Position numbers and translations under genes: made by a program. From the IMG/VR virus record IMGVR_UViG_651053022_000007, positions 28,836 to 92,835 of that record: a stretch of DNA of 64,000 nucleotides, one strand, 5' to 3'. The DNA comes from a virus (taxonomy: Duplodnaviria; Heunggongvirae; Uroviricota; Caudoviricetes). Of this stretch, positions 1-63,427 are shown one piece after another; the stretch's first letter is position 1, and every line of letters begins with the position of its first letter. A model generated the notes under the pieces. It made no database searches and had not been told where the DNA came from. It worked only from the letters and a program-made list of their open reading frames with translations.

Positions 1-33
1 GGATGGCGGTCTACAGAGGGTTGTTGCCAGATA

Positions 34-264
34 TCATGAGTAGAAGAAGTATGCCAGTTCCGCTTTTGAGCGCAGCCATTGTCTTGTTTTACAGGCTTTA
101 AAAAGCCCATTCATCAATACCTTACCTGGCATTTTGCGCTTACCTGTTAAGTGAGTCTGGATATAGTGACTCGTCGTTCCGGCTTCCTGTGCGAAGGCTT
201 CACGCTCATCCGGAGTAAGTGCAAGCCAGTGCTTTTTGAAATCGAAATGTCCGTTATCGCTCAT
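34..264 (-). CDS. Cro/CI-type HTH regulator (Cro-like), divergent from 419..1003
   Basis: 76-aa ORF; small basic protein with HTH-like segment; divergent from a tandem-HTH gene across an operator-bearing intergenic region. Confidence 0.4.
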   Translation of the reverse strand: MSDNGHFDFKKHWLALTPDEREAFAQEAGTTSHYIQTHLTGKRKMPGKVLMNGLFKACKTRQWLRSKAELAYFFYS

Positions 265-418
265 AGCTATTGCCTGATATTTATTTCAGATAATAAATAT
301 TCACCCATAAGGTAACAAAAATCAAGGATAGTTACCTATGAGGTGCATTTACCTGTTGGGTAATATTGCTTTAAATTGAATCATCTACTGATTCATATAT
401 GAGGCGATTTTCCAGAAA
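265..418. promoter_or_regulatory. divergent immunity-region control region with operator-like palindromes
   Basis: TTACC-TGTTG-GGTAA at 349-363 and GGTAA..TTACC pair at 311-336 between divergent regulator genes. Confidence 0.4.
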
Positions 419-1003
419 ATGAAAAGTATCCAGGACGTCCGCAGGCAAAATCTCAACGACTTGATCGACCGTGAATTCAATGGTGTTCAGACGCGGATGG
501 CAGAAAAACTTGGAACTCAGGCAAATCTGGTAAACCGCTGGGCTCTTGGAAAGAAGGTTATCGGCGACCAGGTTGCGCGAAAAATTGAAGCTGCCGCCAA
601 TAAACCCCGTAACTGGCTTGATATCGATCGCTCGCTTTCTCAGGAAGGTTTTCAGCCTGTCGGCCCAAGCGACATTGGTCAGCTGGCGGCTCACAACCTG
701 GAACGCTGGATGAGCGAAAGCCGCGACCTTTCAACGCAGGGAAAACTACACCGCGCATCCGGCGTCGCCCAGGTGACAATCAGCCGCCTGTTAAACAATG
801 AAGTCAGCGTTTCCATTTCCACCCTGGAGAATGTTGCATCCGCATTCGGGCGTCACGGCTATGAATTACTGATTCACCCGCACGACCCTGCGACTATCAA
901 CTATGATCGCTCGCGCTACGCATTGTTACCTGAAACAGAGAAGGCAAAGATCGAAAGTTACATTGAATTTGTCATCAACCAGAACGAAAAAAGAAAACAA
1001 TAA
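419..1003 (+). CDS. tandem-HTH (XRE-like) DNA-binding protein, putative phage repressor/regulator
   Basis: 194-aa ORF with two HTH-like segments (QTRMAEKLGTQANLVNRW and ASGVAQVTISRLL). Confidence 0.5.
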   Translation: MKSIQDVRRQNLNDLIDREFNGVQTRMAEKLGTQANLVNRWALGKKVIGDQVARKIEAAANKPRNWLDIDRSLSQEGFQPVGPSDIGQLAAHNLERWMSESRDLSTQGKLHRASGVAQVTISRLLNNEVSVSISTLENVASAFGRHGYELLIHPHDPATINYDRSRYALLPETEKAKIESYIEFVINQNEKRKQ

Positions 1004-1024
1004 AATCATATTTTTCAGTAAGTA

Positions 1025-1048
1025 AGCCGCCTCATGGCGGCTTTTTTA
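1025..1048 (+). terminator. rho-independent terminator
   Basis: hairpin AGCCGCC-TCAT-GGCGGCT followed by T6 immediately after the 419..1003 stop. Confidence 0.55.
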
Positions 1049-1060
1049 TTGCCTATACGA

Positions 1061-1075
1061 TTACCTTATGGGTAA
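1061..1075. promoter_or_regulatory. operator-like palindrome TTACC-N5-GGTAA
   Basis: TTACCTTATGGGTAA read directly. Confidence 0.45.
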
Positions 1076-1094
1076 TTTTTTTAACTCATATCTA

Positions 1095-1137
1095 TTGACA
1101 TCAAACCAGATACGCATAATTATTACCTCAACGGTAA
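1095..1137 (+). promoter_or_regulatory. putative early promoter overlapped by operator palindrome
   Basis: TTGACA at 1095-1100, -10-like TAATTA/ATAATT near 1116-1122, then TTACC-TCAAC-GGTAA at 1123-1137. Confidence 0.4.
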
Positions 1138-1156
1138 CAGACCGAGGTAACAAGTT

Positions 1157-1309
1157 ATGCAGTGGAAAATCATCAACGGTTGGTACTGCGTTACTGCATG
1201 CGGATTCATGAGCTGGAAGTTCCGCACCTTACAGGAAGGCATTAAGTGGGCTTTCGTCAGCAAAGAAGCTCGCGATGTAGCCAACGATAACGAGATATGG
1301 GAGGGCTGA
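1157..1309 (+). CDS. small hypothetical protein (50 aa)
   Basis: ATG..TGA ORF not in supplied track (MQWKIINGWYCVTACGF...); first ORF downstream of promoter. Confidence 0.25.
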   Translation: MQWKIINGWYCVTACGFMSWKFRTLQEGIKWAFVSKEARDVANDNEIWEG

Positions 1310-1311
1310 TA

Positions 1312-1611
1312 ATGAACGTTAATCAGCAGAAAAATCTTCAAAAAATCATGCTGGCATTCGACAAGGACTACCCCCTGTCAGAACAGCTATATGACCGACA
1401 AGTTGAACTGATTGAGAGCATCCGACTTCATCAACTGTCCTCAACTTTCGACGTTGTAACAGGCAAAGGCGTTCGTCAGGAAGTGCTGGAGGCTGCTAAA
1501 GACAGCCCTGAGTTCGAAGAACTGATGGATGCCTACCGGCGCGAGGCAATGGCAATTATAGCGCGCTGGGATCTGGCGGATCAGCTTGATGGGCAGAGGG
1601 ACGCGGCATGA
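1312..1611 (+). CDS. hypothetical early-operon protein (99 aa)
   Basis: ORF 1297..1611 with likely start at MNVNQQ; immediately upstream of and overlapping the exonuclease gene. Confidence 0.45.
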   Translation: MNVNQQKNLQKIMLAFDKDYPLSEQLYDRQVELIESIRLHQLSSTFDVVTGKGVRQEVLEAAKDSPEFEELMDAYRREAMAIIARWDLADQLDGQRDAA

Positions 1612-2507
1612 TGCGGAACGCTGGAATCATGGATAGAACAAAATACATCGGAGGAAGCGATGTTGCAGGGATTCTTGGAATTAGCCCATGGCGCACCCCG
1701 CTTGAGGTTTATCTGGATAAGGTACAGCCACGTGTCAAACCAGTAGACCCAAGCAAGCAGAAAGTTTTCACGCGTGGCCAGCGTATGGAGCCATACGTAA
1801 TAGACCTGCTTTCTGAGGAAACAGGGATGGAAATCGTTCATCGCGGAAACCGCTATATCCACCGTGATTACGATTTTATTGCAGCTGAGATCGATGCAGA
1901 AGCAGCGTCAGGCGAGAACATTGAGATCAAAACAGTTAGTCCGTTCAAAGCCAAAGAATGGGGAGAAATCCAGACAGATGCAATTCCTGTGCATTACACG
2001 GCCCAGGCCATGCACGGGTTGATGGTTACAAACAAACAGGTATGCGTTTTCGGTGTGCTTATCGGTGGCGACGACTTCCGAATCTATCGGGTTGAGCGTG
2101 ATGAAGAAACTATCCAGGCGATCTTAGAAAAAGAAATCGCTTTCTGGGACCGAGTGAAAAATCTTAACCCGCCGGAAGCTACCAGCGTAAGCGATGTATC
2201 GCTGATGTTTGAGAAAGATGCCGGGACAAGTATCGAGGCTGACGGAAAGGCACTCGCACTATTCAACGATCTACGAGACATGAAATCACGCAGAAAATCA
2301 CTGGAAGAAGAAATAGCTATATCAGAAGAGAAGCTGAAGATGTACATGCAAGAGCACTCAGTCCTGACCCTGGACGGAAAGCCGCTCTGCACATGGAAAT
2401 CTCAGATCAGCAACAGATTCGACCAGAAGCTATTCCAGTCAGTACACCCTGAGTTATTCGAAAAATTCAAAACAACAACGACACAACGCGTCTTCAGAAT
2501 GAAGTAA
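1608..2507 (+). CDS. YqaJ-type PD-(D/E)XK recombination exonuclease
   Basis: 299 aa; N-terminal GGSDVAGILGISPWRTPLEVY motif typical of YqaJ viral recombinase exonuclease; precedes RecT. Confidence 0.7.
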   Translation: MMRNAGIMDRTKYIGGSDVAGILGISPWRTPLEVYLDKVQPRVKPVDPSKQKVFTRGQRMEPYVIDLLSEETGMEIVHRGNRYIHRDYDFIAAEIDAEAASGENIEIKTVSPFKAKEWGEIQTDAIPVHYTAQAMHGLMVTNKQVCVFGVLIGGDDFRIYRVERDEETIQAILEKEIAFWDRVKNLNPPEATSVSDVSLMFEKDAGTSIEADGKALALFNDLRDMKSRRKSLEEEIAISEEKLKMYMQEHSVLTLDGKPLCTWKSQISNRFDQKLFQSVHPELFEKFKTTTTQRVFRMK

Positions 2508-2516
2508 GGAGAAAAA

Positions 2517-3539
2517 ATGTCTATCAATGCACTTAAGGCAGCGGCTACCGGTAACCAAGTTGCACATCATAATGAGAAACCAACAACTCTGGCCGGACTT
2601 CTGGCAGACCCAAAAATTAAAGCTCAGATGGCTTTGGCACTTCCAAAGCACATGACAGCAGACCGTCTGGCGCGCATAGCAACCACAGAGATCAGAAAGG
2701 TTCCAAAACTTGCATCATGCGACCAAGCCAGCTTCCTGGGGGCAATTATGCAATGTGCCCAATTGGGTCTTGAACCAGGCGGAGCTCTTGGACACGCTTA
2801 CCTGATACCGTTCGACAAACGCCAGAAAGTAAATGGAAGATGGGAAACCGTATCTACAGAAGCACAGCTGATTATCGGCTATCGCGGAATGATTGACCTT
2901 GCCCGCCGCTCTGGGCAGATCCTGAGTATCTCGGCTCGTACCGTACATACAAACGACAAATTCAGCTACTCATACGGCCTGGAAGAAACGCTCGAGCATT
3001 TACCTTGCGAAACAGGTGACCGCGGAGAATTAACGCACGTTTACGCCGTTGCACGACTGAAAGATGGCGGAGTCCAATTTGAAGTTATGAGCCGGGCAGA
3101 CGTTGAGAAAGTTCGTGCACTGAGCAAAGCCGGTAGCAGTGGCCCATGGGTTGATCACTTCGATGAGATGGCTAAAAAAACAGTAATTCGCCGACTGTTC
3201 AAATATCTTCCTGTTTCTATTGAAATGCAGAAGGCTGTTGTTATGGATGAGCGCGCTGAAGCTGGACTTAGCCAAGATAACGCAGCTGTTATCACTGGTG
3301 AATATTCCGTAGTTGACGATGAGCGTCAACACCTGTCGCCAATTTCAGATTCAGAACGAGAAGAAGCTCGAGAATATATCATCGCGATACTTAATAGCCT
3401 GGATCCATCTGCTGAAGATGCAAAAACGATGTTCAAGCGCGCTGAAAATGAAATTAACACCATGGCTGAAAAGCTCGGTGATGAATATCACCAAAAATTC
3501 ATGATGACGCTTAACGATATGCGTCCAGAATTCGAGTAA
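2517..3539 (+). CDS. recT: RecT-family single-strand annealing recombinase
   Basis: 340 aa; strong similarity to RecT (RIATTEIRKVP, GLEPG..LGHAYL.PF, LIIGYRGMIDLARRSGQI, GPW, AKKT.IRRLFKYLPVSIE). Confidence 0.85.
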   Translation: MSINALKAAATGNQVAHHNEKPTTLAGLLADPKIKAQMALALPKHMTADRLARIATTEIRKVPKLASCDQASFLGAIMQCAQLGLEPGGALGHAYLIPFDKRQKVNGRWETVSTEAQLIIGYRGMIDLARRSGQILSISARTVHTNDKFSYSYGLEETLEHLPCETGDRGELTHVYAVARLKDGGVQFEVMSRADVEKVRALSKAGSSGPWVDHFDEMAKKTVIRRLFKYLPVSIEMQKAVVMDERAEAGLSQDNAAVITGEYSVVDDERQHLSPISDSEREEAREYIIAILNSLDPSAEDAKTMFKRAENEINTMAEKLGDEYHQKFMMTLNDMRPEFE

Positions 3540-3588
3540 CCACCACCGCGGCGCCACGTGCGCCGCACTGCAACCAAGAGAGGTATTC

Positions 3589-3837
3589 ATGAAAGGTGCA
3601 TTAGGTAAGAAAGAACTCCTGGCGGTGGTGCCACTGTCATGGAGCACTATCGACCGTATGGAGCGCGCAGGGGAATTTCCTAAACGCTGGTATATCACCG
3701 ATAAACGCTGCGCATGGAACCGTGATGAAGTTGAGCGTTGGCTTGATGAACGTCAGGCAGCAAGCCCGGCAGAGTTCCAGGGTAAAAAGCCTCCTGTTCA
3801 GCAACGTGTATATCGTCCTGTGAGCAACGCGGCATGA
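3589..3837 (+). CDS. AlpA-family phage regulatory protein / excisionase-like
   Basis: 82 aa; small HTH protein with AlpA-like motif (LSWSTIDRMERAGEFPKRW). Confidence 0.6.
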   Translation: MKGALGKKELLAVVPLSWSTIDRMERAGEFPKRWYITDKRCAWNRDEVERWLDERQAASPAEFQGKKPPVQQRVYRPVSNAA

Positions 3838-3946
3838 GTGTGCTGCTAAGGCACTGGAGCAAATGGTCAGGATGGTACTTATTCCTGGCCTCTGTTTCAG
3901 CATGGCTTTATCTGCTGGCATTAATTTTCAGAGAGGGTTGGATTAA

Positions 3947-4246
3947 GTGAGAAAGTTAAGCCGACTTGAAAAATATCACATGAACAAGGTTTCAATGCGC
4001 AGCCCTTCAAAGGTTGTTGCCGTTACTCCTGCGGCGATAGAGATCGAAAAACGCGCGATTGAAAGAGAGAAAAAAGGGCAGTTCCGCATTGCCGCCCACC
4101 TTTGGCTTCAGTGTATGGATGTTGCTTCTGGTGATGTTGAACGTGCAAGGATCGCGATTCTCAGGGACCAATGTATCACAAAAGGTAACGGACTTCGCCG
4201 TGGCGACTATAGCGGCATAGGATGTTGTGGGGTGGTTTATGACTAA
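3947..4246 (+). CDS. small regulator, tentatively PerC-family-like
   Basis: 99-aa ORF; pattern EKKGQFRIAAHLW...ERARIAILRDQC resembles PerC/Pch small activators; recalled from memory only. Confidence 0.3.
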   Translation: MRKLSRLEKYHMNKVSMRSPSKVVAVTPAAIEIEKRAIEREKKGQFRIAAHLWLQCMDVASGDVERARIAILRDQCITKGNGLRRGDYSGIGCCGVVYD

Positions 4247-4889
4247 GAAATACACACTAATCTATGCAGATCCACCCTGGGCATACCGGGACAAAGCCAC
4301 AGATGGTAATCGCGGTGCCGGTTTTAAATATCCGGTTATGAGTGTGCTGGATATCTGCCGCCTTCCTGTGTGGGATTTGGCCGGTGAAAACTGTCTGTTG
4401 GCCATGTGGTGGGTGCCAACACAACCACTCGAAGCACTAAAAGTTGTTGAAGCCTGGGGATTTCGTCTGATGACGATGAAGGGCTTCACGTGGATAAAAT
4501 GTGGTAGTCGACAACCAGATAAACTGGTTATGGGTATGGGACACATGACTCGCGCCAATAGTGAAGATTGCCTGTTTGCGGTAAAGGGAAAACTACCTAC
4601 GCGCATTAATGCAGGGATCGTTCAGTCATTTACCGCACCGCGGCTTGAGCATTCAAGAAAGCCAGATATCGTTCGTGAAAAACTTGTGCAATTATTAGGC
4701 GATGTTTCTCGCATTGAACTGTTCGCCCGCCAGACGTCTCATGGCTTTGATGTTTGGGGTAATCAGTGCGAAGACCCGGCAGTGCAACTACACCCTGGAT
4801 ACGCGTTGGATATTGGCGGATTAACAAATGCATTCAGCAATGCTCCGCTGTCACCAATAGACAACCAGGGGCGGGAGCGTGCAGCATGA
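4239..4889 (+). CDS. MT-A70-family DNA N6-adenine methyltransferase
   Basis: ORF 4227..4889; YADPPWAY (DPPW) catalytic motif. Confidence 0.7.
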
Positions 4890-5545
4890 GCCTATATCAA
4901 CGCATCAATGGCGCTGACTGGTGCAATATCTTCGTCGTCGGCGATCTGCATGGGTGCTACACGCTGCTGATGAACGAACTCGACAAAGTTTCATTCGACC
5001 CGGCGCGCGATTTACTTATTTCCGTTGGTGACCTTGTTGACCGCGGCGCTGAAAACCTCGAATGCCTGGATTTGATTACTATGCCGTGGTTCCGAGCTGT
5101 TCGTGGCAACCATGAGCAGATGATGCTGGATGCACTGGTCAACGGCGGAAGTTTCGGACATTGGATGTCAAACGGCGGTGGATGGTGGCACCAACTTGAT
5201 TCTGAGCAGGATGTGCAAATCAAATACCTTCTGCCAAAGATTGCCAACCTCCCGATGATTATCGAACTGGTTACCGGCAATAAGAAGGTCGTCATCTGTC
5301 ACGCAGACTACCCGCACAACGAATACGCATTCGATAAGCAAGTACCAGAAGAAATGGTGATATGGAATCGTGAGCGGGTTAGCGACGCGCAGGACGGTAT
5401 TGTCTCGGAGATAACCGGTGCCGATTTGTTCATCTTCGGTCATACGCCAGCACATCACCCACTGGTGTATGCAAACCAGATGTACATCGACACCGGCGCA
5501 GTGTTCTGCGGAAATCTGACGCTTATCAAAGTCCAGGAAGGATAG
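4886..5545 (+). CDS. lambda-type Ser/Thr protein phosphatase (metallophosphoesterase)
   Basis: Start [12 protein letters not shown] inside ORF 4766..5545; motifs GDLHG, GDLVDRG, GNHE. Confidence 0.75.
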
Positions 5546-5547
5546 AA

Positions 5548-6804
5548 TTATTTATTACTGTCTTCCATCCACTTCTCAAACTTCGACGGGGAGAACGGAA
5601 TCAGATCCGTATGCTCCCCGTCAATCCAGGAATCAATCATATCTGCCCACTGCTGCAACATGTAGGCGCGCTGTCTGGCGTATTCCGCTTTGTTATATAC
5701 GGCGCGCACACCTTTCTGCTCATGTGCCAGAGCCTTTTCAATCCAGTCTGAAGGATAACCAGCCTCATGCAACAACGTACTGGCTGTACGGCGCATATCG
5801 TGTACGGTGAAGTCCTGAATATGCTCACCATCTTCATTTATTATTTTCACCGTTCTGTCGATCAGAGAGTTCAACGCGGCATTAGATAATGGCTTCCGGA
5901 AATTGTAACGACCAGGAACCAGGTATTCACTTCCACCAGCGCACATCTGCAACCCAACCAATATATCCTGTGCTTGTTTAGGCAGGTAAATAACGTGCGC
6001 CCGGCTTCCCTTCATGCGGCCTGAAGGAATTGTCCATGTCCATTTTTTAAAATCTATTTCATCCCACGTTGCATTGGTGAATTCGCCTTTACGAACCATA
6101 GTGATAAGCACCAGCTTTAAAGCCATTTTCATAGTGCCCATAGCACCAATGGCATCCAGCGTGCGGAAGAACAGACCAATTTCTTCTGGTGTCAGTGTTC
6201 GCTCTCGTGGTTTAAATATGGCGATAGACGAAGGTTTAATGTCAGCAGCAGGATTAAACAAACCATGACCACGGTCATTGGCGTGACGGTATACGCTGCT
6301 GATGATCTCCCTGGCCTGTACTGCTGTTGCCCGACCACCGCGTTCGACAATCCGGTCACACAAATCACGAACCATCGATGTGGTAATTTCAGCCATCATT
6401 TTGTTGCCAAGAACCGGAAGTATGTCACGGTCGATCACCGCCTGCTTCATTGCGCGGGTACTTTCAGCCAGGATGACGTGTTTCATATAACTGTCGGTAT
6501 GTACCGCAAACGTCTCGGCACCACGAATCTTTTTGATACCGTCACGTTTAGCCGCAGCCGGCGACTGGCCTGCTTTAAGCAGCTTCTTTGCAGCAATCAG
6601 TTCTTCTCGCGCTTCTGCCAGGCTGATACCGTCACGCCCATACTGCCCGATTACCAGTGTTTCGCGGCGACCGTTGATACGGTAGTCATAGCGAAACGAG
6701 ACCGTACCTGACGTAAGCACAGCTACATACAGCCCGTCACGATCGGAAACTTTGTACAGTTTGTCCTGTGGCTTGAGGTTTTTTAATTTTGTATCGGTAA
6801 GCAC
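5548..6804 (-). CDS. int: tyrosine integrase (P4-type, N-terminal arm-binding domain)
   Basis: 418 aa; MLTDTKLKNLKP...LYVAV N-terminus and C-terminal catalytic region (HDMRRT, Y near C-terminus). Confidence 0.85.
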   Translation of the reverse strand: MLTDTKLKNLKPQDKLYKVSDRDGLYVAVLTSGTVSFRYDYRINGRRETLVIGQYGRDGISLAEAREELIAAKKLLKAGQSPAAAKRDGIKKIRGAETFAVHTDSYMKHVILAESTRAMKQAVIDRDILPVLGNKMMAEITTSMVRDLCDRIVERGGRATAVQAREIISSVYRHANDRGHGLFNPAADIKPSSIAIFKPRERTLTPEEIGLFFRTLDAIGAMGTMKMALKLVLITMVRKGEFTNATWDEIDFKKWTWTIPSGRMKGSRAHVIYLPKQAQDILVGLQMCAGGSEYLVPGRYNFRKPLSNAALNSLIDRTVKIINEDGEHIQDFTVHDMRRTASTLLHEAGYPSDWIEKALAHEQKGVRAVYNKAEYARQRAYMLQQWADMIDSWIDGEHTDLIPFSPSKFEKWMEDSNK

Positions 6805-7121
6805 AATTCACCCGTATAGAAACCATTTTCATGACGGTATGAGAGTATACCTTTAAGGTAATACCGTCACCTGTACCGCCGAAAAATATGGTGTAGAGTG
6901 AATAGAAATGAATACGTAAAAACAAAAACCCTCTGCAAAAACAGAGGGTTGAGTTGGCATCTGAATAGGAATGATTTGCTATGAGTTAGCTGTTAATCAT
7001 TCCCACTCAATTATTTACGGATACCATAACCAATTGAGTGATAACATTTTTCCAAAACTCAATTTTCCTCGTACCGTTTTATATACCGTCACCGGAAATC
7101 AGTACCATGAAAAATGCCATG
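6805..7121. promoter_or_regulatory. integrase upstream region / candidate attP
   Basis: repeated ATACCGTCAC-like motifs, degenerate palindrome ATACC-TTTAA-GGTAA at 6847-6861, hairpin AACCCTCTG..CAGAGGGTT at 6925-6950; lies between int and the lysis cassette. Confidence 0.3.
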
Positions 7122-7604
7122 CTATCTGGTCAGGGTGTCGTACTGTTTTTCACAGACTCTTCCGGCTTCGGCTGCCCGGTCAGCATACTCTGCCAGTTGT
7201 CTGTTTCTCTCGAGAGATTTACTGAGCACGTCGGCAAGCAAAACTCCGGTGTCTGCGGCTGACGTCCCAGCGCCGACAATGGCGTTATACTGCCTGAGCT
7301 GCTCACGGATGGCAACGAGCTGTTGCTGCAACCGGCCAGCGCGAGCGGCAGCATCAAGAGCATCATTGCGCGCCTGGTCGATCCTCTGCTGCGCTTCACG
7401 TTCATTGATCGCTTTCTCCTGTTCGTAGTGCTGACGAATTCTCTCATCTTCGGTTTTGCGGTCTTCTTTCGCCTGCGCATACCCGGCGTCGTACTGACGA
7501 CTGCCGTGTACACTCCAGGCAGCAACTCCTGATATGACCAGAACAGCAAGCACCGCCATGATAATCAACTGTTTCCGGTATGCTTTTACGAATGCCCAGA
7601 TCAT
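7122..7604 (-). CDS. Rz-like i-spanin
   Basis: 160 aa; N-terminal TM segment then charged coiled-coil-like region; last gene of lysis cassette. Confidence 0.6.
7130..7366 (-). CDS. Rz1-like o-spanin lipoprotein embedded in Rz (+1 frame)
   Basis: internal start [14 protein letters not shown] with lipobox LAGC and proline-rich mature part, within ORF 7130..7549. Confidence 0.5.
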   Translation of the reverse strand: MMLLMLPLALAGCSNSSLPSVSSSGSITPLSALGRQPQTPEFCLPTCSVNLSRETDNWQSMLTGQPKPEESVKNSTTP

Positions 7605-8230
7605 ACCGCCAGCACCTTACTGGCAGCGATGTACCGCGCGCGCCGGTCGTCGATGCCGTTCCGGCCACCATTGATAATCAGAGTTACACGTGCAATATCG
7701 CCGGTATACTTCATGCATCCTTTGCTGGCGAAGAACCACGCCGCGCTACGAGCCGCATATTCGTCCTGCGCCAGCAGTTCAGGGCTCTCCAGCAGGTCAA
7801 CCTTCAGACCGTTTCCGCAATCACGATAGTTATTCAAACCGGTAATCTGGATAAGTCCGCGCCCTCGGTAATTCCAGCCATCACCAGGGGCATTGTTCCC
7901 CATGCGTTTGCTGTATACCAGATTTGCGATCGCGCGCTGGCGCTCAAGTGGCAATGGTGGTTCACCAGCACGGCGCCCCAGTGCATTAGCCTGCCCCTGA
8001 GTGAGACGCCCAGCCCGAACGAAGTTAGCCAGTCCGCTGACACTGTAGTTGAAATTCTCCTGCAACCTGGTGAAGCCCCCAGACTCATGCCCGACTTGAG
8101 CAATAAACATTGCCTGATCTTCTGCTTTGCTGATACCAAACTCTTTCATCGCAGAAGTTATATGCGAGAACCAGCGTGCGGCCAGCGCCTCGCTAATACC
8201 AGCAGCTCGCTGGAATTGTTTAATCTCCAT
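7601..8230 (-). CDS. endolysin, glycoside hydrolase family 19 type
   Basis: 209 aa; motifs [10 protein letters not shown] and GRGLIQITG typical of GH19 phage lysozymes. Confidence 0.75.
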
Positions 8231-8528
8231 GTTTAGACCTCGTTATCTTGAAAATCTGAACGACGTTACCGCGAGTTTTAAGAACCGCAGCAAGCATGAC
8301 AGCGTTGATAATGACCTCAGATAAATCCACAGCCATTGGCGTGCGTAACCAGATTGCATAGGCGACTCGAACAGGAATACTGGCCGCAGCAACAATCAGG
8401 AAATAAGCAAGCCATCCTCCCCACCTTCGATGTTGAGAGCCGTTACGCCGGAATGTGACAACGCGAATTGCTATGCCAGTGCAAATAACTGCATTGGTGA
8501 TAAGCAAAAAAAACTCATGCGTTACCAT
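8220..8528 (-). CDS. membrane protein, putative holin/antiholin
   Basis: 102-aa hydrophobic ORF between holin-like gene and endolysin. Confidence 0.4.
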
Positions 8529-8919
8529 CGTCTTTTCTCCCCGGAATTAACTCGCGTGGATTATCGGAACGGTGATAGAGCCATATACCAATACGCACAG
8601 CGACAATTGCTGACACGAATGCGCCTGCAGAGAAAACAATCCCTTTTTCAAAAGAGTCCTGCGTGATGGTAGGGATCAGGCTGGCTATGCCGATAAGAAT
8701 TGATGCTGCTGGTTTGTAAAAGAGAAGGCCGCAAAGAAAGCTGAGCATCGACAGGAGCACCCGGCGACGGATGGGGTACTCTACTGCAGAGGTAACAAAA
8801 ATTACCGCCCCAGCCAAAGCCCCTAAAGCAACCTCCGGAGGGACACCTGCAATAACCGCAGCAAGAGAACTAACACTAAGCCACTGATTTGAAGTTTCAT
8901 TGGTTAGTTGGAATGACAT
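8515..8919 (-). CDS. membrane protein, putative holin
   Basis: 134 aa with several hydrophobic segments, first gene of lysis cassette downstream of tailspike. Confidence 0.45.
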   Translation of the reverse strand: MSFQLTNETSNQWLSVSSLAAVIAGVPPEVALGALAGAVIFVTSAVEYPIRRRVLLSMLSFLCGLLFYKPAASILIGIASLIPTITQDSFEKGIVFSAGAFVSAIVAVRIGIWLYHRSDNPRELIPGRKDDGNA

Positions 8920-11908: not shown

Positions 11909-12223
11909 GGTTTGCAATCACCAAATGGAGTGCTTATATTTACCTTTGCGGTAAATTTACAACGCACTCCTCTTGTGCCATAGTAATCGAGCACTGGCAA
12001 AATCCAGTGCCGGGATTGGCGTCCCGGATTACTAAAAGGCGCATTCACCGCGCAAGCGGTTTTTTTATGCGTATAGCACGGCCACATTCGTATTATGGTG
12101 GGCTGTGTGGGGGCACCGAAAGGTGCGCCGGGTCCTTTTAGCCGGTTACGCCAACCCTGCACAGTTCACCACCAACCGATTGGCGTCGGTAGTGGTGATT
12201 AACCAGACTAAAAGGTAACCACT

Positions 12224-12919
12224 ATGACAGCTACAAAAAGCACGTCCATTTTTTCTTTCGAATCCCAAGCCGATATACGGGTAATCGTCATTAATGGTGA
12301 GCCATGGTTTATCGCTTCAGATGTTTGTCGGGCTATAGGCATAGCAAACCATCGAGATGCTGTTCGAAAACTTGATGATGATGAGAAGGGCGTCGCTTCA
12401 ACCGACACCCCTGGCGGTGAGCAAGAATCGATCATCATCTCCGAGTCAGGCCTCTACACACTGATCCTCCGCTGCCGCGACGCAGTGACACCAGGCACTA
12501 TCCCCTACCGCTTTCGCAAATGGGTTACAGGTGATGTTCTTCCTCAGATCCGTCGCACCGGAAGTTACATTAAAAACTCGCTCCCGCAGGAAGAACGCAT
12601 AAAGATGGTTGCCGACCAGGTAGCCAGCGCCACAGCATCAGCAGTGATGCAGGCAATGAAGGTAGAGAACAAAACCTACAGCGCCCCACTGAAGCCCGGC
12701 TACCGCAGCCTGATTCATTCGCCGTCTGGTGTTCTTGGCCTGACGGAGAACTCACTGCTGATGAATCTGCTGAACCAGTTACAGGACGACGGGCATGACG
12801 TATCGGGCGCGGCGGCGGAGCTGACCACCATGTTCTGCTACATCGTCGGTGTGAGCAAATGCCTGCGTGATATCCAGACGCACGCGGAGTACATCAGCGA
12901 CAAAGCAGGGTTCTTCTGA
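12224..12919 (+). CDS. ant: Bro-N domain antirepressor (Ant)
   Basis: 231 aa; N-terminal Bro-N-like region (IRVIVINGEPWFIASDVCRAIGI...SGLYTLIL). Confidence 0.75.
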   Translation: MTATKSTSIFSFESQADIRVIVINGEPWFIASDVCRAIGIANHRDAVRKLDDDEKGVASTDTPGGEQESIIISESGLYTLILRCRDAVTPGTIPYRFRKWVTGDVLPQIRRTGSYIKNSLPQEERIKMVADQVASATASAVMQAMKVENKTYSAPLKPGYRSLIHSPSGVLGLTENSLLMNLLNQLQDDGHDVSGAAAELTTMFCYIVGVSKCLRDIQTHAEYISDKAGFF

Positions 12920-12985
12920 CGGGCGGCGGCACAGGGATGTGCCTTTAAAATAATCATTGGCGATGTGATGTAGATTCGCGTAATA

Positions 12986-13000
12986 TTACCTTAAAGGTAA
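12986..13000. promoter_or_regulatory. operator-like palindrome TTACC-N5-GGTAA
   Basis: TTACCTTAAAGGTAA directly followed by AGGAGG RBS. Confidence 0.45.
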
Positions 13001-13011
13001 AGGAGGCGCGA

Positions 13012-13179
13012 TATGACAGCGTTGAAAAATCGTACTCAGCACAATGAACAAGCCAAGCAATGCTGGGATGTCATTGGAAAAGTTATGCTTGGTCGCGCAA
13101 GCAAAGAGCGCGACAAGGATATGGTTTACCAGACAGGAACATCTTTTAGCGACTTCAAGGCGGCATTTCGCTCCAAATA
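13012..13179 (+). CDS. small hypothetical protein (55 aa)
   Basis: ATG 5 nt after AGGAGG; MTALKNRTQHNEQAKQCWDVIGKV...; not in supplied track. Confidence 0.3.
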
Positions 13180-13200
13180 GAAGCACATCAGGAGTTTTCC

Positions 13201-13644
13201 TTGAAGTTTAACATTAGAATATCTAATAGTTTTCTACATGGGGAAAGCAACACCCCTTTCGCTGTAGACGGACCTTTCCTTACTGATGATGAAATAAAAA
13301 TCATACAAAGGTTTTTAGAGGATGTTGCCAATGGAAGGGCGCTTGTTGGAAAAAACAAGCCATCGTGGGTTGATGATAACCATGATAAAATTCCCGGCTC
13401 AGACAATTATGAGCAAGAGAATTATTGGCATTATCATTGTGGGCCAACATGGTATCCAAACACATTTAAGAATTATACCATTAACTTAAATTTCAACCCT
13501 GGCGGAATGCATTCTAATGAATGCATTCATTATGCAAAAAATGATAATGAAATTGTCATTGTTGGATTTTCAAGAGAACACATACCTTTCCTTTCATCAG
13601 ATGGAAACAACAATCCGCTTTTTAATGATGAAGAAGAAGAATAA
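13201..13644 (+). CDS. hypothetical AT-rich moron protein (147 aa, acidic C-terminal tail)
   Basis: TTG start 8 nt after CAGGAG; low-GC coding region; Cys/His-containing, ends NDEEEE; followed by terminator. Confidence 0.45.
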   Translation: MKFNIRISNSFLHGESNTPFAVDGPFLTDDEIKIIQRFLEDVANGRALVGKNKPSWVDDNHDKIPGSDNYEQENYWHYHCGPTWYPNTFKNYTINLNFNPGGMHSNECIHYAKNDNEIVIVGFSREHIPFLSSDGNNNPLFNDEEEE

Positions 13645-30981: not shown

Positions 30982-31058
30982 GTGGCATTAGCTCAGTTGG
31001 ACAGAGCAACCGCCTTCTAAGCGGTTGGTCGCAGGTTCGAATCCTGCATGCCACGCCA
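30982..31058 (+). tRNA. tRNA-Arg (anticodon TCT)
   Basis: cloverleaf folded by hand: acceptor GTGGCAT/ATGCCAC, D-arm GCTCAGTTGGACAGAGC, anticodon loop CTTCTAA, T-loop TTCGAAT, CCA end. Confidence 0.85.
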
Positions 31059-35751: not shown

Positions 35752-35884
35752 CGGTAGGCATGATAAGACGCGTCAGCGTCGCATCAGGCATCTGCGCACG
35801 GTGTCGGATGCGGCGCGAGCGCCTTATCCGACCTACGGTTCAGGCCTGTAGGCATGATAAGACGCGTCAGCGTCGCATCAGGCA
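35752..35884. repeat. two REP-like palindromic units
   Basis: GGCATGATAAGACGCGTCAGCGTCGCATCAGGCA occurs twice; resembles E. coli chromosomal REP elements. Confidence 0.55.
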
Positions 35885-37080
35885 ATTGATGTCTTAGGGC
35901 CGGAGAAACGCAGACGGCGTACCACACAGGAAAAGATCGCAATTGTTCAGCAGAGCTTTGAACCGGGGATGACGGTCTCCCTCGTTGCCCGGCAACATGG
36001 TGTAGCAGCCAGCCAGTTATTTCTCTGGCGTAAGCAATACCAGGAAGGAAGTCTTACTGCTGTCGCCGCCGGAGAACAGGTTGTTCCTGCCTCTGAACTT
36101 GCTGCCGCCATGAAGCAGATTAAAGAACTCCAGCGTCTGCTCGGCAAAAAAACGATGGAAAATGAACTCCTTAAAGAAGCCGTTGAATATGGGCGAGCAA
36201 AAAAGTGGATAGCGCACGCGCCCTTATTGCCCGGCCTGCTCGGCAAGAAAACGATGGAAAATGAACTCCTCAAAGAAGCCGTTGAATATGGACGGGCAAA
36301 AAAGTGGATAGCGCACGCGCCCTTATTGCCCGGGGATGGGGAGTAAGCTTAGTCAGCCGTTGTCTCCGGGTGTCGCGTGCGCAGTTGCACGTCATTCTCA
36401 GACGAACCGATGACTGGATGGATGGCCGCCGCAGTCGTCACACTGATGATACGGATGTGCTTCTCCGTATACACCATGTTATCGGAGAGCTGCCCACGTA
36501 TGGTTATCGTCGGGTATGGGCGCTGCTTCGCAGACAGGCAGAACTTGATGGTATGCCTGCGATCAATGCCAAACGTGCCGATGACTGGAAGGACGGCCGC
36601 CGCAGCCGTCACACGGATGATACGGATGTGCTTCGCCGTATACACCATGTTATCGGAGAGCTACCCACATATGGTTATCGTCGGGTATGGGCGCTGCTTC
36701 GCAGACAAACAGAACTTGATGGTATGCCTGCGATCAATGCCAAACGTGTTTACCGGATCATGCGCCAGAATGCGCTGTTGCTTGAGCGAAAACCTGCTGT
36801 ACCGCCATCGAAACGGGCACATACCGGCAGAGTGGCTGTGAAAGAAAGTAATCAGCGATGGTGCTCTGACGGGTTTGAGTTCCGCTGTGATAACGGAGAA
36901 AAACTGCGGGTCACGTTCGCGCTGGACTGCTGTGACCGTGAGGCACTGCACTGGGCGGTCACAACGGGTGGCTTCGACAGTGAAACAGTACAGGACGTCA
37001 TGCTGGGAGCAGTGGAACGCCGCTTTGGCAGCGAGCTTCCGGCGTCTCCAGTGGAGTGGCTGACGGATAATGGTTCATGC
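35885..37080 (+). mobile_element. IS2 remnant (5'-truncated orfA, 3'-truncated orfB, internal tandem duplications)
   Basis: orfA from codon 2 ([55 protein letters not shown]) and orfB to ..WLTDNGSC; 98-bp duplication at 36137-36333 and 170-bp duplication at 36407-36747. Confidence 0.8.
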
Positions 37081-37452: not shown

Positions 37453-37697
37453 ACGAAGCTAAGGTTGGTAATTAAGGAGTTCTCCACGGGTCAGGTGGAG
37501 TGCGTGCGCCGGACACGGGTGAACATCCGGCACTGACAGTTTACTGAAAGGATATGTCCCTGAAAAGTCAGGGCATAAAGCGAAAGCGCACGGCGAAATT
37601 GGTCTCTCTGTACGGTGTCGTTAAATTTAGTTCGACCGTGCGCTTCCGGTTGTGGCACTCCGCGAAATGGCGCGGCGGTAAGTATGGCGGGGTTATT

Positions 37698-37716
37698 CGG
37701 TTGGATCACCTCCTTA
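37698..37716 (+). rRNA. 16S rRNA 3'-terminal 19-nt fragment (start of an rrn spacer fragment)
   Basis: CGGTTGGATCACCTCCTTA, followed by spacer with tRNA-Ile and tRNA-Ala. Confidence 0.6.
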
Positions 37717-37784
37717 CCTTAAAGAAGCGTACTTTGAAGTGCTCACACAGATTGTCTGATGAAAATGAGCAGTAAAACCTCTAC

Positions 37785-37861
<77 letters not shown>

Positions 37862-37903
37862 AATTTGCACCGCAAATTTGAAGAGGTTTTAACTACATGT
37901 TAT

Positions 37904-37979
37904 GGGGCTATAGCTCAGCTGGGAGAGCGCCTGCTTTGCACGCAGGAGGTCTGCGGTTCGATCCCGCATAGCTCCACCA
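37904..37979 (+). tRNA. tRNA-Ala (anticodon TGC)
   Basis: GGGGCTATAGCTCAGCTGGGAGAGCGCCTGCTTTGCACGCAGGAGGTCTGCGGTTCGATCCCGCATAGCTCCACCA. Confidence 0.85.
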
Positions 37980-37994
37980 TCTCTGTAGTGATTA

Positions 37995-39193
37995 AATAAA
38001 AAAACGATATTGATTTCATCAAACTGCTCATCGTCCATTAACACTCCCGCATGCGTCAGCGCATCCAGCGGTGCTTTCAGGATATTGTCCAGGTCGCGAC
38101 GACGCTTATCCGGTGGCTCTGCAATCACCTTTATCGCCAGCCTTCCGGACAGGTTTAATTTCAGCCGCTGCTGGCGAACAATTAGCGCCACATCACGGCG
38201 ATAACGCTTTCCGGCCTCCGAGATGAAATACGTATTGCCATGACGTCGCCAGTAGGTATTCACCGTCGGCGGGTAAGGCAAAACAAATTCTATGCGTTCA
38301 GTCATACCTCCCAGGCCATGACCAATGATGTGATGCGGATCATCTGCCTGATTACCGCACGTCATGCATTTCTGCGTTTTTACCCAGCGCGTGTATACAG
38401 GCATCTCTTCCCGTTGTGGTTTCTGGCGCTGGAGATACTGAGCCGGAGACTCCGGATCAACGGCGATGCTTACTAACGTCTTTTCCTGGAGTGGGGGCTG
38501 TTGCTGGTGGACGTGAAGTGGCAGCGCAATATTTTTTGTGCGCTGCTTCAGTATGCTGGTGGCAGTCTGTTCTCCCGGTACGATGTCACTCTCACGGTAT
38601 ACGGAGCGGATTTTTTCCACCGGTAATCCCAGTGAACGACACAATACAGACTCCGGAAGCACATCAGCCACCTGATTGCAGACCGCCCACCAGGATAATT
38701 CGGCCAGCGATAACTCCCTCTCCTGCGTACCGCTGATTGCGTGACGGATGACGTCAATCATCCATGCTGACAAGTTTTGGTGAGCAAGTTGCTCAAGTGA
38801 TTCTGAGGTCTGGTCACACAACTGGTTGTCGCAGTGCCAGCACAACACCATTGCGCCGGTACCATAACGGTGAATGACGGTTTCACTGTGGTGATAATCA
38901 CCGTGTGGCCACTGGCAGGATTTAATATGGCGCAACAGCCAGTCAGACAGTGCACCAGCGCCGCCAGCAGCACGAATCACACGCTCATTGCTGAAAAATG
39001 GCAGTAATGATTTATCCTCCGCCAGCGGCTGGCGAACGGCAGGGACGACTCCGGATGGCAGGCCGCACATGCTTTTCGGTTCCGGCTCCACCAGCACTCG
39101 AGGATTATGAAATATCTGTATGGATTCACGGCCCGGCTTAAGGACCACCAGCCCAAGCTCAGGCACCAGAACAGGTCTAAGTAATACCCGCAC
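37995..39193 (-). pseudogene. YdfU-like (DUF968) :: RusA in-frame fusion remnant
   Basis: relative to intact copy at 61442..62860, about 62 codons at the YdfU/RusA boundary are missing (HGLGGM|TERIEFV) and rusA ends at EINIV; ORF 37889..39193 then reads through antisense tRNA-Ala. Confidence 0.6.
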
Positions 39194-43023: not shown

Positions 43024-45093
43024 TCACGCAACGCGGGGTTCCAGGGTCACCCACTGTGGAATGAGGCCAAAATGCTGCGGCCAGAAGCTGATGCGCTGTT
43101 CATCAGGGACTATGGTGGCAACCAGTTGTTGCAGGCCAGTCTCCGGTGCACAGGCCGAAGAGGTGGTGTTCTGAGCATCATCTAACGGGATTTCATCGGT
43201 CATAATGGCAGATTGCGCTTCGCGTGATTGCTTAAGCCACCATTTAATGGTGTCCCGATCAATGACTCCGCCAGCAGTTTCCAGATCGATAGTCTTACTA
43301 AATTCCGGTCCCATATCTCCGGTTTGCGGATCGAAAAATATTGCATCTATTGAGATAATCGGGGCATCAGGATTTTTTCCCATGGTTTCAAGGTCAATCA
43401 TCAGATGGTGCCACAACCTGCTGGTGGATGTGCTTTTACGATGACTGTTCACCTTAATTAAGGGATTTGCTGTCTCGCCTATTTCATTATTGTCATTGGC
43501 ATGTTGATCGCCTTCGGTGCACTCCTTGTTCGGGAGTCCGGCATTTTCTATTTCCTCTGGATCTTTTTCCCGGGCTTCATCCTGGCTTTCTTCGTTGAAT
43601 GTCTCCTGGTAGGTTGCGTCACCCATCACTGCGCCACAATCAGGGCAGTTACCACCACCAGTCTGATTGCATGCGGTACAAACTTTTTCCTCTTCCTGTT
43701 GCACGACTGGTTCAGGTTGTTTCGTTTCTGGCTCGTTTTGTAACGCATTTTGGCTGTTTTGTTCCGCTTTTTGGTCGTACTGTTCCGTTTCTGACTGGTT
43801 CTGGTGCACAGAATCGCGGGTTTCAATCCCCTTCACCCATTTCGGATCATTCGGGTCGCTAATCCCTTCAACAAATTCACCACGTGATGCAGCGAGCAAC
43901 TTATTAGCGTCAGGCTGGCTGATACTGGCTGCCTGCATAATTTTGTTTACTTCGTCAGCGGTAACTTTTACCAGGTCTGGTTGTGCGGTCGTGTCAGATG
44001 CATCAGTATTTTGTTGTGAACCTGTGTATGTGCCGTTTTTGCGGGCAAAATATTCTTCTTTCGTGATTTCAGTTGCCCCGGCAGCCAGCGCCTTATCCAG
44101 ACCAGAAAGTTTGTTTGCGCGACCGTATTTTTCGCCATCCTTGTCGGTGAAGAGGAAGTAGAACGGCCCCTCACGCTCTACAGATGGTTCGACTTCCACT
44201 TTGCATTCGGTTTTTTCGTTGTCCGGAATTGCCGTTTCCACTGCATCAGTTTCTGGTACTGGCGACGAGAGAGTATCAGTTGCGCTCTGATTTCTTCCTT
44301 CATCTTCAAACACGCCCTTTGTAGTCAGGTATTCAGTAATGTATTTGTTCAGTGCCACAGGGTCTTTGTGAATGTCGATCGGACGTTCACGGACAAGGCC
44401 AAAAATAGTCTGGCGGTCGTAGCGAAGGGCATCAGGCTGTTTGCGCATTGATGCCGAGATACGCTTCCAGTCTTCGCGGTCGTTGTCGATAACTTCTTTT
44501 TTTGCCCAGCGATGGATGCTGCCGTCAATGTTTCCGGCATCCACATCACCAGGCCAGAGAGCGTAGGCCAGTTCGTCATCCAGTGTTTTCCATGTCTGCT
44601 TGTATTCGCGATGAATGGCAGCAATGACCGGGCTGATTTTTCCTGTTGAATTTTCAGTGTACTGTTGATTGGCTCTGGCGCGGGCGAGATCAACAACAGA
44701 CGTGTATTTTCCGGTTTCCTTGCGTTCACCTTCACGACGTTTTTTCCAGATGCGCATCTCTGCCTGAATTTCGGGCCATTTGGCACCAGGCTTACATTTA
44801 TGCTTAACCCACCCGATGGCATGCAGCTTAAGCTCCGGATACATGGCGTTAACTTCTGGCATTTTCATCAACGCTTCAACGATATGTCCGTCGAATGTTG
44901 CCATGTCTTCCTGCAACAATTCCTGTGCGCTAATAACCATATCAACGGTGATGTTTTCACATGTGTCGAACTTAACCATGACAGCGTTCTGTACTTCAGG
45001 GGCCAGCTTGTCAAAAGTGACGTTCATCGGATCGGATTCAGTCTCAACCGGGACAAAAGAAGCAGACTCCTCATCCCAGCGGTTTTCCTGCAT
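43024..45093 (-). CDS. chimeric exonuclease ORF: RecE-like central region plus DEDD 3'-5' exonuclease domain
   Basis: 689 aa; KLLAASRGEFVEGISDPNDPKWVKGI and CTACNQTGGGNCPDCGAVMGDATYQETF match RecE middle region; C-terminal IDLETMG exo-I-like motif. Confidence 0.45.
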   Translation of the reverse strand: MQENRWDEESASFVPVETESDPMNVTFDKLAPEVQNAVMVKFDTCENITVDMVISAQELLQEDMATFDGHIVEALMKMPEVNAMYPELKLHAIGWVKHKCKPGAKWPEIQAEMRIWKKRREGERKETGKYTSVVDLARARANQQYTENSTGKISPVIAAIHREYKQTWKTLDDELAYALWPGDVDAGNIDGSIHRWAKKEVIDNDREDWKRISASMRKQPDALRYDRQTIFGLVRERPIDIHKDPVALNKYITEYLTTKGVFEDEGRNQSATDTLSSPVPETDAVETAIPDNEKTECKVEVEPSVEREGPFYFLFTDKDGEKYGRANKLSGLDKALAAGATEITKEEYFARKNGTYTGSQQNTDASDTTAQPDLVKVTADEVNKIMQAASISQPDANKLLAASRGEFVEGISDPNDPKWVKGIETRDSVHQNQSETEQYDQKAEQNSQNALQNEPETKQPEPVVQQEEEKVCTACNQTGGGNCPDCGAVMGDATYQETFNEESQDEAREKDPEEIENAGLPNKECTEGDQHANDNNEIGETANPLIKVNSHRKSTSTSRLWHHLMIDLETMGKNPDAPIISIDAIFFDPQTGDMGPEFSKTIDLETAGGVIDRDTIKWWLKQSREAQSAIMTDEIPLDDAQNTTSSACAPETGLQQLVATIVPDEQRISFWPQHFGLIPQWVTLEPRVA

Positions 45094-45573: not shown

Positions 45574-45649
45574 TGGCGTCCCCTAGGGGATTCGAACCCC
45601 TGTTACCGCCGTGAAAGGGCGGTGTCCTGGGCCTCTAGACGAAGGGGAC
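45574..45649 (-). tRNA. tRNA-Glu (anticodon TTC)
   Basis: reverse complement reads GTCCCCTTCGTCTAGAGGCCCAGGACACCGCCCTTTCACGGCGGTAACAGGGGTTCGAATCCCCTAGGGGACGCCA. Confidence 0.85.
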
Positions 45650-45734
45650 GTATCAGTCTGCTTCGCAAGACGCCTTGCTTTTCACTTTCTATCAGACAAT
45701 CTGTGTGAGCACTGCAAAGTACGCTTCTTTAAGG

Positions 45735-46781
<1,047 letters not shown>

Positions 46782-54982: not shown

Positions 54983-55276
54983 CGAAAACCTGCTGTACCG
55001 CCATCGAAACGGGCACATACAGGCAGAGTGGCCGTGAAAGAAAGCAATCAGCGATGGTGCTCTGACGGGTTCGAGTTCTGCTGTGATAACGGAGAGAGAC
55101 TGCGTGTCACGTTCGCGCTGGACTGCTGTGATCGTGAGGCACTGCACTGGGCGGTGACTACCGGCGGCTTCAACAGTGAAACAGTACAGGACGTCATGCT
55201 GGGAGCGGTGGAACGCCGCTTCGGCAACGATCTTCCATCGTCTCCAGTGGAGTGGCTGACGGATAATGGTTCATGC
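54983..55276 (+). mobile_element. IS2 orfB internal fragment
   Basis: ...[45 protein letters not shown]...WLTDNGSC, ending at the same codon as the copy at 37080. Confidence 0.7.
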
Positions 55277-55669
55277 ACCATAAAGATTGTTTACGATGAA
55301 AATAATATTATTGTTGCCATAACCAAAGATGCCTCCACACTTAACCCTGAAGGTTATAGCGTCGTTGAGATTCCTGATATTACCGCCAACCGGCGTGCTG
55401 ACGACTCAGGTAAATGGATGTTTAAAGATGGCGCAGTCATTAAACGTGTATATACCGAAGAAGAGTTGCGCCTACAGACGGAAAACCAGAAAAAAATATT
55501 ATTACAGCAGGCCAGAGAAAAAACGCAGTTCTGGCAAACACAGCTTACTTTGGGGATTATCACTGATTCAGACAGACAGCAACTGATGAACTGGATGCGA
55601 TACGTGCAACAGGTTGAGACAACTGATACCTCGGTTCTTCCTGTAACATTCCCGGAACCACCAGAATAA
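55277..55669 (+). pseudogene. tail fibre assembly protein fragment fused behind IS2 fragment
   Basis: ...[28 protein letters not shown]...[11 protein letters not shown]. Confidence 0.55.
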
Positions 55670-63270: not shown

Positions 63271-63320
63271 TGTCCCTGCCTCCATTCAGTCGATGATGCG
63301 CATAATGGCGCTGCATTGAG

Positions 63321-63427
63321 CTGCTGGAAACGCAGACCGTGGACTTCAGCGTGGGTGCTGAAGGGCTTCGCCATGTACCGGGGGATGTCATTGAAATCTG
63401 CGATGATGACTATGCCGGTATCAGCAC
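63321..63427 (+). pseudogene. J-like internal fragment, second copy
   Basis: same ~110 bp as 46614-46732 ([35 protein letters not shown]). Confidence 0.5.

Follow-up and report, generated by a model that had tools for sequence, protein, structure and literature searches.

The window, the whole stretch of 64,000 nucleotides analysed here, carries a temperate podophage at positions 1 to 35755, with genes running from left to right in the order early genes, int, attP, lysis, tailspike, structural genes and terminase, as expected across a circular junction. The window lacks the replication module, about 3.5 kb of the phage, and does not reach the left end of the phage piece. Between int and the Rz-like gene is a 317-bp intergenic region in which a 17-bp core separates the P arm (190 bp) from the P' arm (110 bp). 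The open reading frame calls confirmed the coordinates given by a first-pass annotation for this gap (int start at 6804, end of the Rz gene at 7122, 317 bp of non-coding DNA between the two). The main genes and regions are as follows.

1-35755, no strand: phage assembly piece; temperate podophage, phiV10/epsilon15-like, in circular-junction order
3589-3837, plus strand: AlpA-family helix-turn-helix open reading frame, 82 amino acids (Pfam Phage_AlpA, 24.2 bits against a cut-off of 21)
5548-6804, minus strand: int open reading frame, GTG start, 418 amino acids
6805-7121, no strand: intergenic attP region, 317 bp
7122-7604, minus strand: Rz-like i-spanin (DUF2514) open reading frame, TAG stop at 7124-7122
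about 7130-7405, within Rz: embedded Rz1-like o-spanin frame, by homology to the phiV10 annotation
7601-8230, minus strand: GH19 endolysin (lysis cassette 7601-8919)
8220-8528 and 8515-8919, minus strand: two holin-family open reading frames (lysis cassette 7601-8919)

The int start is the one used in RefSeq and by other gene callers, which give an identical protein. Pfam recognizes three domains in it, Arm-DNA-bind_3 (PF13356, residues 2-87), Phage_int_M and Phage_integrase (PF00589), and the protein is 98% identical to the Int of phiV10 and 86-88% identical to those of epsilon15 and Tyrion. At the level of sequence, the catalytic domain has the R-K-H-x-x-R-H-Y signature of lambda-type tyrosine integrases: the candidate residues R238, K265, H335-x-x-R338, H361 and Y370, which were assigned by eye rather than by mapping onto a structure, are invariant in four phages. 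A separate arm-binding domain is present at the N-terminus (PF13356). By its predicted domains, the int product is a P4-like tyrosine integrase with an N-terminal arm-binding domain, and it would be expected to act as a heterobivalent tyrosine recombinase. Being full length, with three domains and invariant candidate residues, the protein is not a relic, and an inactive integrase, which the first-pass annotation had named as an outcome that would overturn its reading, was rejected. No sigma-70-like int promoter in the gap passed the promoter scan; a weak promoter-like candidate (GTGACG-15 nt-TATACT), noticed by eye only and not claimed as the int promoter, overlaps the arm sites described below.

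The order int, gap, Rz, endolysin and holins is common to phages vB_EcoP_ZX5, phiV10, epsilon15, SPN1S and Tyrion, and the DNA from int to the holins is 97% identical to ZX5, 94% to phiV10 and about 81-82% to epsilon15, SPN1S and Tyrion. Across the gap itself, the mean column identity of an alignment of the window with phiV10, epsilon15 and Tyrion (phages of Escherichia, Salmonella and Enterobacter) is 89%, with an invariant block that spans the core and its right flank. The phage can be assigned by sequence to the phiV10/epsilon15 group (Uetakevirus-like) of temperate podophages: the position of the core, the attB and junctions at guaA, and both the synteny and the similarity of the int-attP-Rz/Rz1-endolysin-holins-tailspike module are those of this group. 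The label Uetakevirus-like refers to module similarity, the early region left of 5565 being unshared with phiV10. The core, the 190-bp spacing, four exact arm sites, the terminator and the gene order are as in phiV10, epsilon15, ZX5 and Tyrion. Unlike in the phiV10 group, however, the Int of the window is two amino acids longer at its C-terminus and the tailspike and antirepressor modules are different; the gene beyond int encodes a Ser/Thr phosphatase rather than the DUF1382 protein of phiV10, to which homology begins only at 5565.

Elsewhere in the phage, Rfam detected isrK (77.9 bits) and C4 antisense RNA (77.7 bits) at 11991-12176 (plus strand), directly upstream of a BRO-N antirepressor-like open reading frame (12224-12919), which is the known layout of the antisense-controlled antirepressors of the P1/P7 type. 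A phage-borne tRNA-Arg (TCT) lies at 30982-31058 (plus strand), between the terminase and portal genes, and is annotated too in the ST131 prophage discussed below and in O157 typing phages 9 and 10.

The attachment site and its target gene

The features of the attachment site itself are listed here.

6283-6292, minus strand: sixth copy of the 10-mer ATACCGTCAC, inside int; present in phiV10 and Tyrion, absent and unannotated in epsilon15
6536-6545, plus strand: arm-type site inside the int coding sequence, encoding R-D-G-I (residues 87-90); exact in four of four phages, annotated in epsilon15
6626-6635, plus strand: arm-type site inside the int coding sequence, encoding R-D-G-I (residues 57-60); exact in four of four phages, annotated in epsilon15
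6831-6840, minus strand: inverted arm-type site ATACCGTCAT in the P arm, 9 of 10 bases matching
6861-6870, plus strand: arm-type site ATACCGTCAC in the P arm; exact in four of four phages, recorded in epsilon15 (NC_004775.2) as an integrase binding site
6917-6950, minus strand: Rho-independent terminator, stem AACCCTCTG/CAGAGGGTT followed by a T-run
6995-7011, no strand: core (identity segment) AATCATTCCCACTCAAT, 17 bp, single occurrence in the window
7083-7092, plus strand: arm-type site ATACCGTCAC in the P' arm; exact in four of four phages, annotated in epsilon15

The core is the reverse complement of ATT GAG TGG GAA TGA TT, which corresponds to the last five codons of guaA (I-E-W-E-stop) and two further bases, TT; in other words, it consists of the last 15 nt of the host gene plus 2 nt. 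Because of this identity, the integration target is guaA and not a tRNA gene. The earlier advice to look for the core at a host tRNA gene was therefore misdirected, as a search at tRNA genes would fail. ARAGORN and Rfam found no tRNA in or near the gap, and the core does not match the 3' part of a tRNA or tmRNA, as it would in a tRNA-targeting element with a P4-like integrase; with the core matching guaA, a tRNA or tmRNA was rejected as the integration target. The description of the gap as containing neither tRNA nor host sequence thus holds for its first half only, since the bases at 6995-7011 are those of the 3' end of guaA in E. coli. In E. coli K-12, which has no prophage at this place, the core occurs once, at the guaA stop codon (attB), and sequence comparison found it identical in attP, in the K-12 attB and in the attL and attR of an ST131 lysogen, the latter two being exact recombinants of attP and attB. 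Strand exchange must accordingly take place inside the 17-bp core at 6995-7011, where the core-binding and catalytic domains of Int would carry it out. The core takes in the guaA stop codon, and integration therefore leaves the gene intact. Inverted repeats near the core (6962-6976/6995-7009 and 7004-7020/7024-7040) were considered as core-type Int sites and could not be assigned with confidence.

In the window, the core (attgagtgggaatgatt) stands beside the P4-like integrase at a distance of exactly 190 bp from the int start (6804). The same 17-mer, also 190 bp from the 5' end of int, has been reported as the attP/attB core of ZX5, for which integration at the 3' end of guaA was shown by PCR and Sanger sequencing (PMC9782041), and the attP of phiV10 and that of epsilon15 are stated to have the same core (PMC9782041). 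The proposal that the gap is a candidate attP, and an intact one, is borne out by the presence of this published core, by virion genomes that are contiguous across it and by lysogens that are split at 6995-7011.

The repeated motifs noticed earlier in the gap proved to be clustered copies of ATACCGTCAC. Five exact copies and one with a single mismatch all fall within 6283-7092, with no further exact copy elsewhere in the 64 kb; when one mismatch is allowed, there are 13 matches against 2.8 expected, a number reached in none of 100 shuffles. Three of the copies lie in the gap (6831, the one with a mismatch and on the minus strand, 6861 and 7083) and three inside the 5' part of int (6283, 6536 and 6626), so that arm-type sites flank the core on the P side (6536, 6626, 6831 and 6861) and on the P' side (7083). 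The plus-strand 10-mers at 6536, 6626, 6861 and 7083 are exactly conserved across phages of three host genera, and the one at 6626 is retained in epsilon15 although a neighbouring residue has changed from R to C. The 9-mer TGACGGTAT of the site at 6831 is retained in phiV10 and epsilon15 and absent from Tyrion. The copy at 6283 is probably not a functional site. In the RefSeq record of epsilon15, the homologous positions are marked as sites of integrase binding; the record also lists IHF sites and a terminator. The R-D-G-I-coding 10-mers (6536 and 6626) fall in and just past the part of int that encodes the arm-binding domain.

We infer from annotation and prediction that Int binds these 10-mers and that IHF is involved. 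The N-terminal domain of Int would bind the ATACCGTCAC sites on both arms, including the two within its own coding sequence, and by analogy with lambda the protein may bridge arm and core sites with the help of host bending proteins.

In lambda, a heterobivalent Int is accompanied by arm sites, bending by IHF and the directionality factor Xis. The window resembles that system in having a tyrosine recombinase with a separate arm-binding domain and arm sites on either side of a short core shared with attB. It differs in the Arm-DNA-bind_3 N-terminus of its Int (the phiV10 Int is annotated as belonging to the P4 integrase family), in its target, which is the 3' end of a protein-coding gene, in the two conserved arm sites inside the int open reading frame, and in a P arm that holds a terminator replacing that of the host gene. 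The AlpA-family open reading frame at 3589-3837 is a candidate excisionase, or directionality factor. It lies in an early operon that converges on int, and RefSeq describes it as a helix-turn-helix regulator only.

The near-palindrome reported in the gap is a perfect 9-bp stem (6927-6935/6942-6950), which both the terminator scan and the fold lengthen to 10 pairs, and is followed on the minus strand by TTTTTGTTTTT. The hairpin has a free energy of -16.5 kcal/mol (z = -5.1), and a terminator is annotated at the homologous place in phiV10 and epsilon15. The hairpin at 6917-6950 is a terminator on the strand that guaA and the lysis genes have in common, and its stem and flanks (AAAACCCTCTG...ACAGAGGGTT) recur in the native guaA terminator downstream of the K-12 attB; the spacing between terminator and core is 44 nt in the P arm of the phage as against 22 nt in the host. 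In the phage form, this terminator would end the late (lysis) transcript. In a lysogen, guaA would keep its stop codon, which is in the core, and would be followed 44 nt further on by the phage terminator, whose stem is that of its own terminator; the native guaA terminator would in turn come to lie behind the phage lysis operon, which would run into it. These features suggest that the P-arm terminator is a host-derived or convergently kept sequence that preserves termination of guaBA after integration.

The site, its core, the target gene and the arm repeats are already published or annotated for the phiV10/epsilon15 group, and nothing in them is new. The biological weight of the locus is small, as it is the published site, in its usual form, of a common phage; the practical value lies in pinning the element down as the ST131 guaA prophage in phage form and in correcting the expectation of a tRNA target.

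Assembly structure to the right of 35755

Homology to the phage stops at 35755, a position that falls partway through a small gene in the identical ST131 reference. The phage piece ends (35754/35755) exactly where a 44-bp exact repeat that also occurs in an ST131 lambdoid prophage comes to an end, which is a branch in the assembly graph. The phage stretch is one piece, as no exact repeat of at least 24 bp reaches into 1-35753. The length spectrum of exact repeats has a spike at 38 bp, with 17 repeats compared with 1 to 3 each at 36, 37 and 39 bp, and these 38-mers are located at the ends of pieces, several of them back to back. Pairs of pieces with a common first and last 38-mer differ by 4-7% inside, and arms of such bubbles are 93-96% alike (e.g., 36787-37080 and 54983-55276, or 46613-46722 and 63318-63427). 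The stretch from 35756 to 64000 contains REP sequences, IS2-like fragments, hok/sok, lambdoid Q-RusA-DUF968 pieces, tail-fibre pieces and an hsdR-like open reading frame, and pieces of it are 100% identical to scattered and reordered bits of an ST131 lambdoid prophage. No complete genome holds 35756-64000 contiguously; the best coverage is 38%, in 12 pieces. We conclude that 35756-64000 is a concatenation of de Bruijn unitigs, bubble arms included, from a graph with k=39 (k-1 = 38 overlap), and that the chimeric-looking open reading frames DUF968-RusA (37889-39193) and rve-Caudo_TAP (55028-55669) are effects of this concatenation.

Two other readings of the right half were set aside. A natural chromosome or another prophage was rejected for want of a contiguous holder among the complete genomes. 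Machine-generated or biologically scrambled sequence had been considered because of the diverged back-to-back duplications, the chimeric open reading frames and an rrn spacer without rRNA, and was dropped in view of the spike of 38-bp end overlaps and the 100% identity of pieces to ST131. The pieces at 37697-37990 and 45574-45754 comprise the last ~20 nt of 16S rRNA with spacer tRNA-Ile/tRNA-Ala and, on the other strand, a tRNA-Glu spacer piece; no rRNA genes accompany these spacer tRNAs in the window, and the pieces are collapsed rrn spacer unitigs rather than prophage tRNA loci. An exact look-up of the 689-amino acid open reading frame at 43024-45093 returned no record, which is uninformative given the concatenation.

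The warning that 35756-64000 consists of concatenated assembly fragments is the most useful by-product of this analysis: findings that treat this stretch as contiguous chromosome are unsafe, comparisons of depth or context with the phage included. The flanking chromosome that the first-pass annotation had wished to use for a comparison of depth does not exist in the window, 35756-64000 being unlinked assembly fragments.

Integrated and unintegrated forms of the phage

In ST131 strain 1446 (NZ_CP184058.1), a 39.3-kb prophage (L001) is inserted between guaA and yfgI. Window positions 1-7011 are 100% identical to L001 9958-2948, and positions 6995-35755 are 99.7-99.98% identical to L001 42266-13448. 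The two stretches are the ends of the prophage and have 17 bp in common, so that the window represents exactly what recombination between attL and attR yields, namely attP. It is the same phage, with arms of attP that are 100% identical for 7 kb to the left and 5.5 kb to the right, and overall it is 99.7-100% identical except for one 0.7-kb module. In the ST131 prophage, however, the site is split into attL (guaA/int) and attR (Rz/yfgI), whereas in the window it is unsplit and the 3.5-kb replication module is missing. Mismatches to the right of the core are confined to 12517-12950, beside the swapped module. This module (12955-13642), next to the antirepressor, has a frameshifted gene in strain 1446 and is 100% identical to E. 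coli ECSC054; it is an ordinary mosaic exchange.

A census of states, made with the 317-bp gap as query against 5,426 complete E. coli genomes, returned 562 carriers. In 555 of them the sequence is divided at the core, the half with int having an annotated guaA beside it and guaA and yfgI being the flanks of the lysogen. It is intact in the other 7, each of which has exactly three places. In the one of these that was checked, Z1323CEC0007 (NZ_CP148463.1, 3557-3639 kb), the order is yfgI / Rz...int / attP / Rz...int / guaA, a head-to-tail double lysogen with identical proteins in both copies of the prophage. The exact Int protein is found in 459 collection blocks and has guaA directly upstream in all eight of the contexts displayed; the exact Rz protein mostly has yfgI as its neighbour, and int in one chromosomal case. 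The intact site is also held by phage-length contigs (37-41 kb) from metagenomes and IMG/VR, and by pHL15EC-2 of strain HL15 (NZ_CP079771.1), a 41,027-bp circular 'plasmid' record that is a phage of the phiV10/epsilon15 group. Both Z1323CEC0007 and pHL15EC-2 resemble the window in having an intact int-attP-Rz junction in a bacterial assembly, but in the tandem dilysogens attL and attR lie about 40 kb to either side and neither is present in the window, and pHL15EC-2 is a closed 41-kb circle, a closure that is not visible in the window. Two duck isolates have a 41,027-bp record matching the phage, and the one that was fetched, that of HL15, was deposited as a circular plasmid. An exact search with a 51-mer of attP specific to the window had no match in IMG/VR, the GTDB representative genomes or the JGI metagenomes, nor did a degenerate attP pattern among the genome representatives.

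Most probably, 6805-7121 is the intact attP of a phage of the phiV10/epsilon15 group, identical to the ST131 guaA prophage and present in its unintegrated form, with joined fragments making up the right part of the window. Phage sequence lies on both sides of the core, without the abutting host sequence of an integrated prophage. A host-phage junction within the gap, the other finding that would have counted against the first reading, was thereby rejected. The gene order is that of the virion genomes of phiV10, epsilon15, ZX5 and Tyrion, in which int, attP and Rz are contiguous with near-identical sequence, in agreement with the original view of a circular or virion arrangement as opposed to a split prophage. 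The assembly bears on the same question. Because k = 39 exceeds 17 bp, the graph can lead through the core only if there are reads extending from the P arm into the P' arm; k-mers of attL or attR in any appreciable amount would make the graph branch and the piece break at the core. An unbranched path through the 17-bp core, which implies reads spanning attP and none of attL/attR, makes free, episomal or virion DNA more likely than a tandem. Judged by the structure of the assembly rather than by reads, the sample appears to have held the phage mainly or only in the attP form, as virion, replicating or episomal DNA, and the site would be unsplit in the window because the DNA that was sequenced held unintegrated phage. 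If low-coverage branches had been pruned in the assembly, an integrated copy could have coexisted with abundant excised phage. The three states initially offered (episomal, tandemly integrated or recently circularised) therefore fare unequally: an unintegrated form of the phage stands, and a simple tandem is the least likely of the three, given the unbranched k=39 path.

Such a tandem, in which the window would cover the internal junction of a double lysogen at guaA with an intact attP between two head-to-tail copies, nonetheless accounts for intact attP in finished chromosomes of E. coli: the three places are seen in all 7 intact genomes, Z1323CEC0007 is confirmed, and one more chromosomal case has Rz beside int. 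We regard it as unlikely here, as attL, attP and attR at equal depth would branch the k=39 graph at both edges of the core and the piece is unbroken, and as the 64 kb hold no guaA or yfgI sequence, no second core and no second int. A right-hand copy would place int and guaA near 46 kb, where they are absent, though the piece ends at 35755; adjacency beyond this point is not physical and can be used neither for nor against a tandem. A mis-join, in which the 17-bp repeat served to merge attL (int side) with attR (lysis side) and no attP molecule lay behind the product, might be entertained for a window that is demonstrably concatenated right of 35755 and whose two arms are both 100% identical to a single integrated ST131 prophage. 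It is very improbable: the 38-bp overlap signature sets k at 39, at which a 17-bp repeat cannot merge paths, and the other concatenated neighbours are unrelated or have 38-bp terminal repeats, whereas the attP junction is seamless and matches the published attP base for base.

The abrupt end of phage homology within a small gene at 35755, with REP and IS2-like sequence coming next, would also fit an excised phage that had entered the chromosome again, by re-insertion or capture through a non-att route, with attP left intact. The junction at 35755 is indeed absent from all the collections searched (IMG/VR, GTDB representatives, JGI metagenomes and complete genomes). The stop nevertheless coincides with the end of the 44-bp exact inter-prophage repeat, a graph branch; beyond it come unitigs that overlap by 38 bp at their ends, arms of bubbles and a piece of rrn spacer that lacks rRNA; and there is no IS end at the junction, all of which leaves such a capture with hardly any probability. 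That a real ST131-type strain keeps the guaA phage stably off its attachment site, as a plasmid-like episome or in a carrier state like that of pHL15EC-2 and not as transient excision or virion DNA, is a distinctly doubtful extension of the unintegrated reading. If it were true, the look-alike of the guaA terminator would be a selected device that keeps both the termination of guaBA and the insulation of int in either state. In strains BL12, GS04 and BHD6, int and the lysis genes are found in a single place interrupted by IS1, which may be a third way of keeping int beside the lysis genes.
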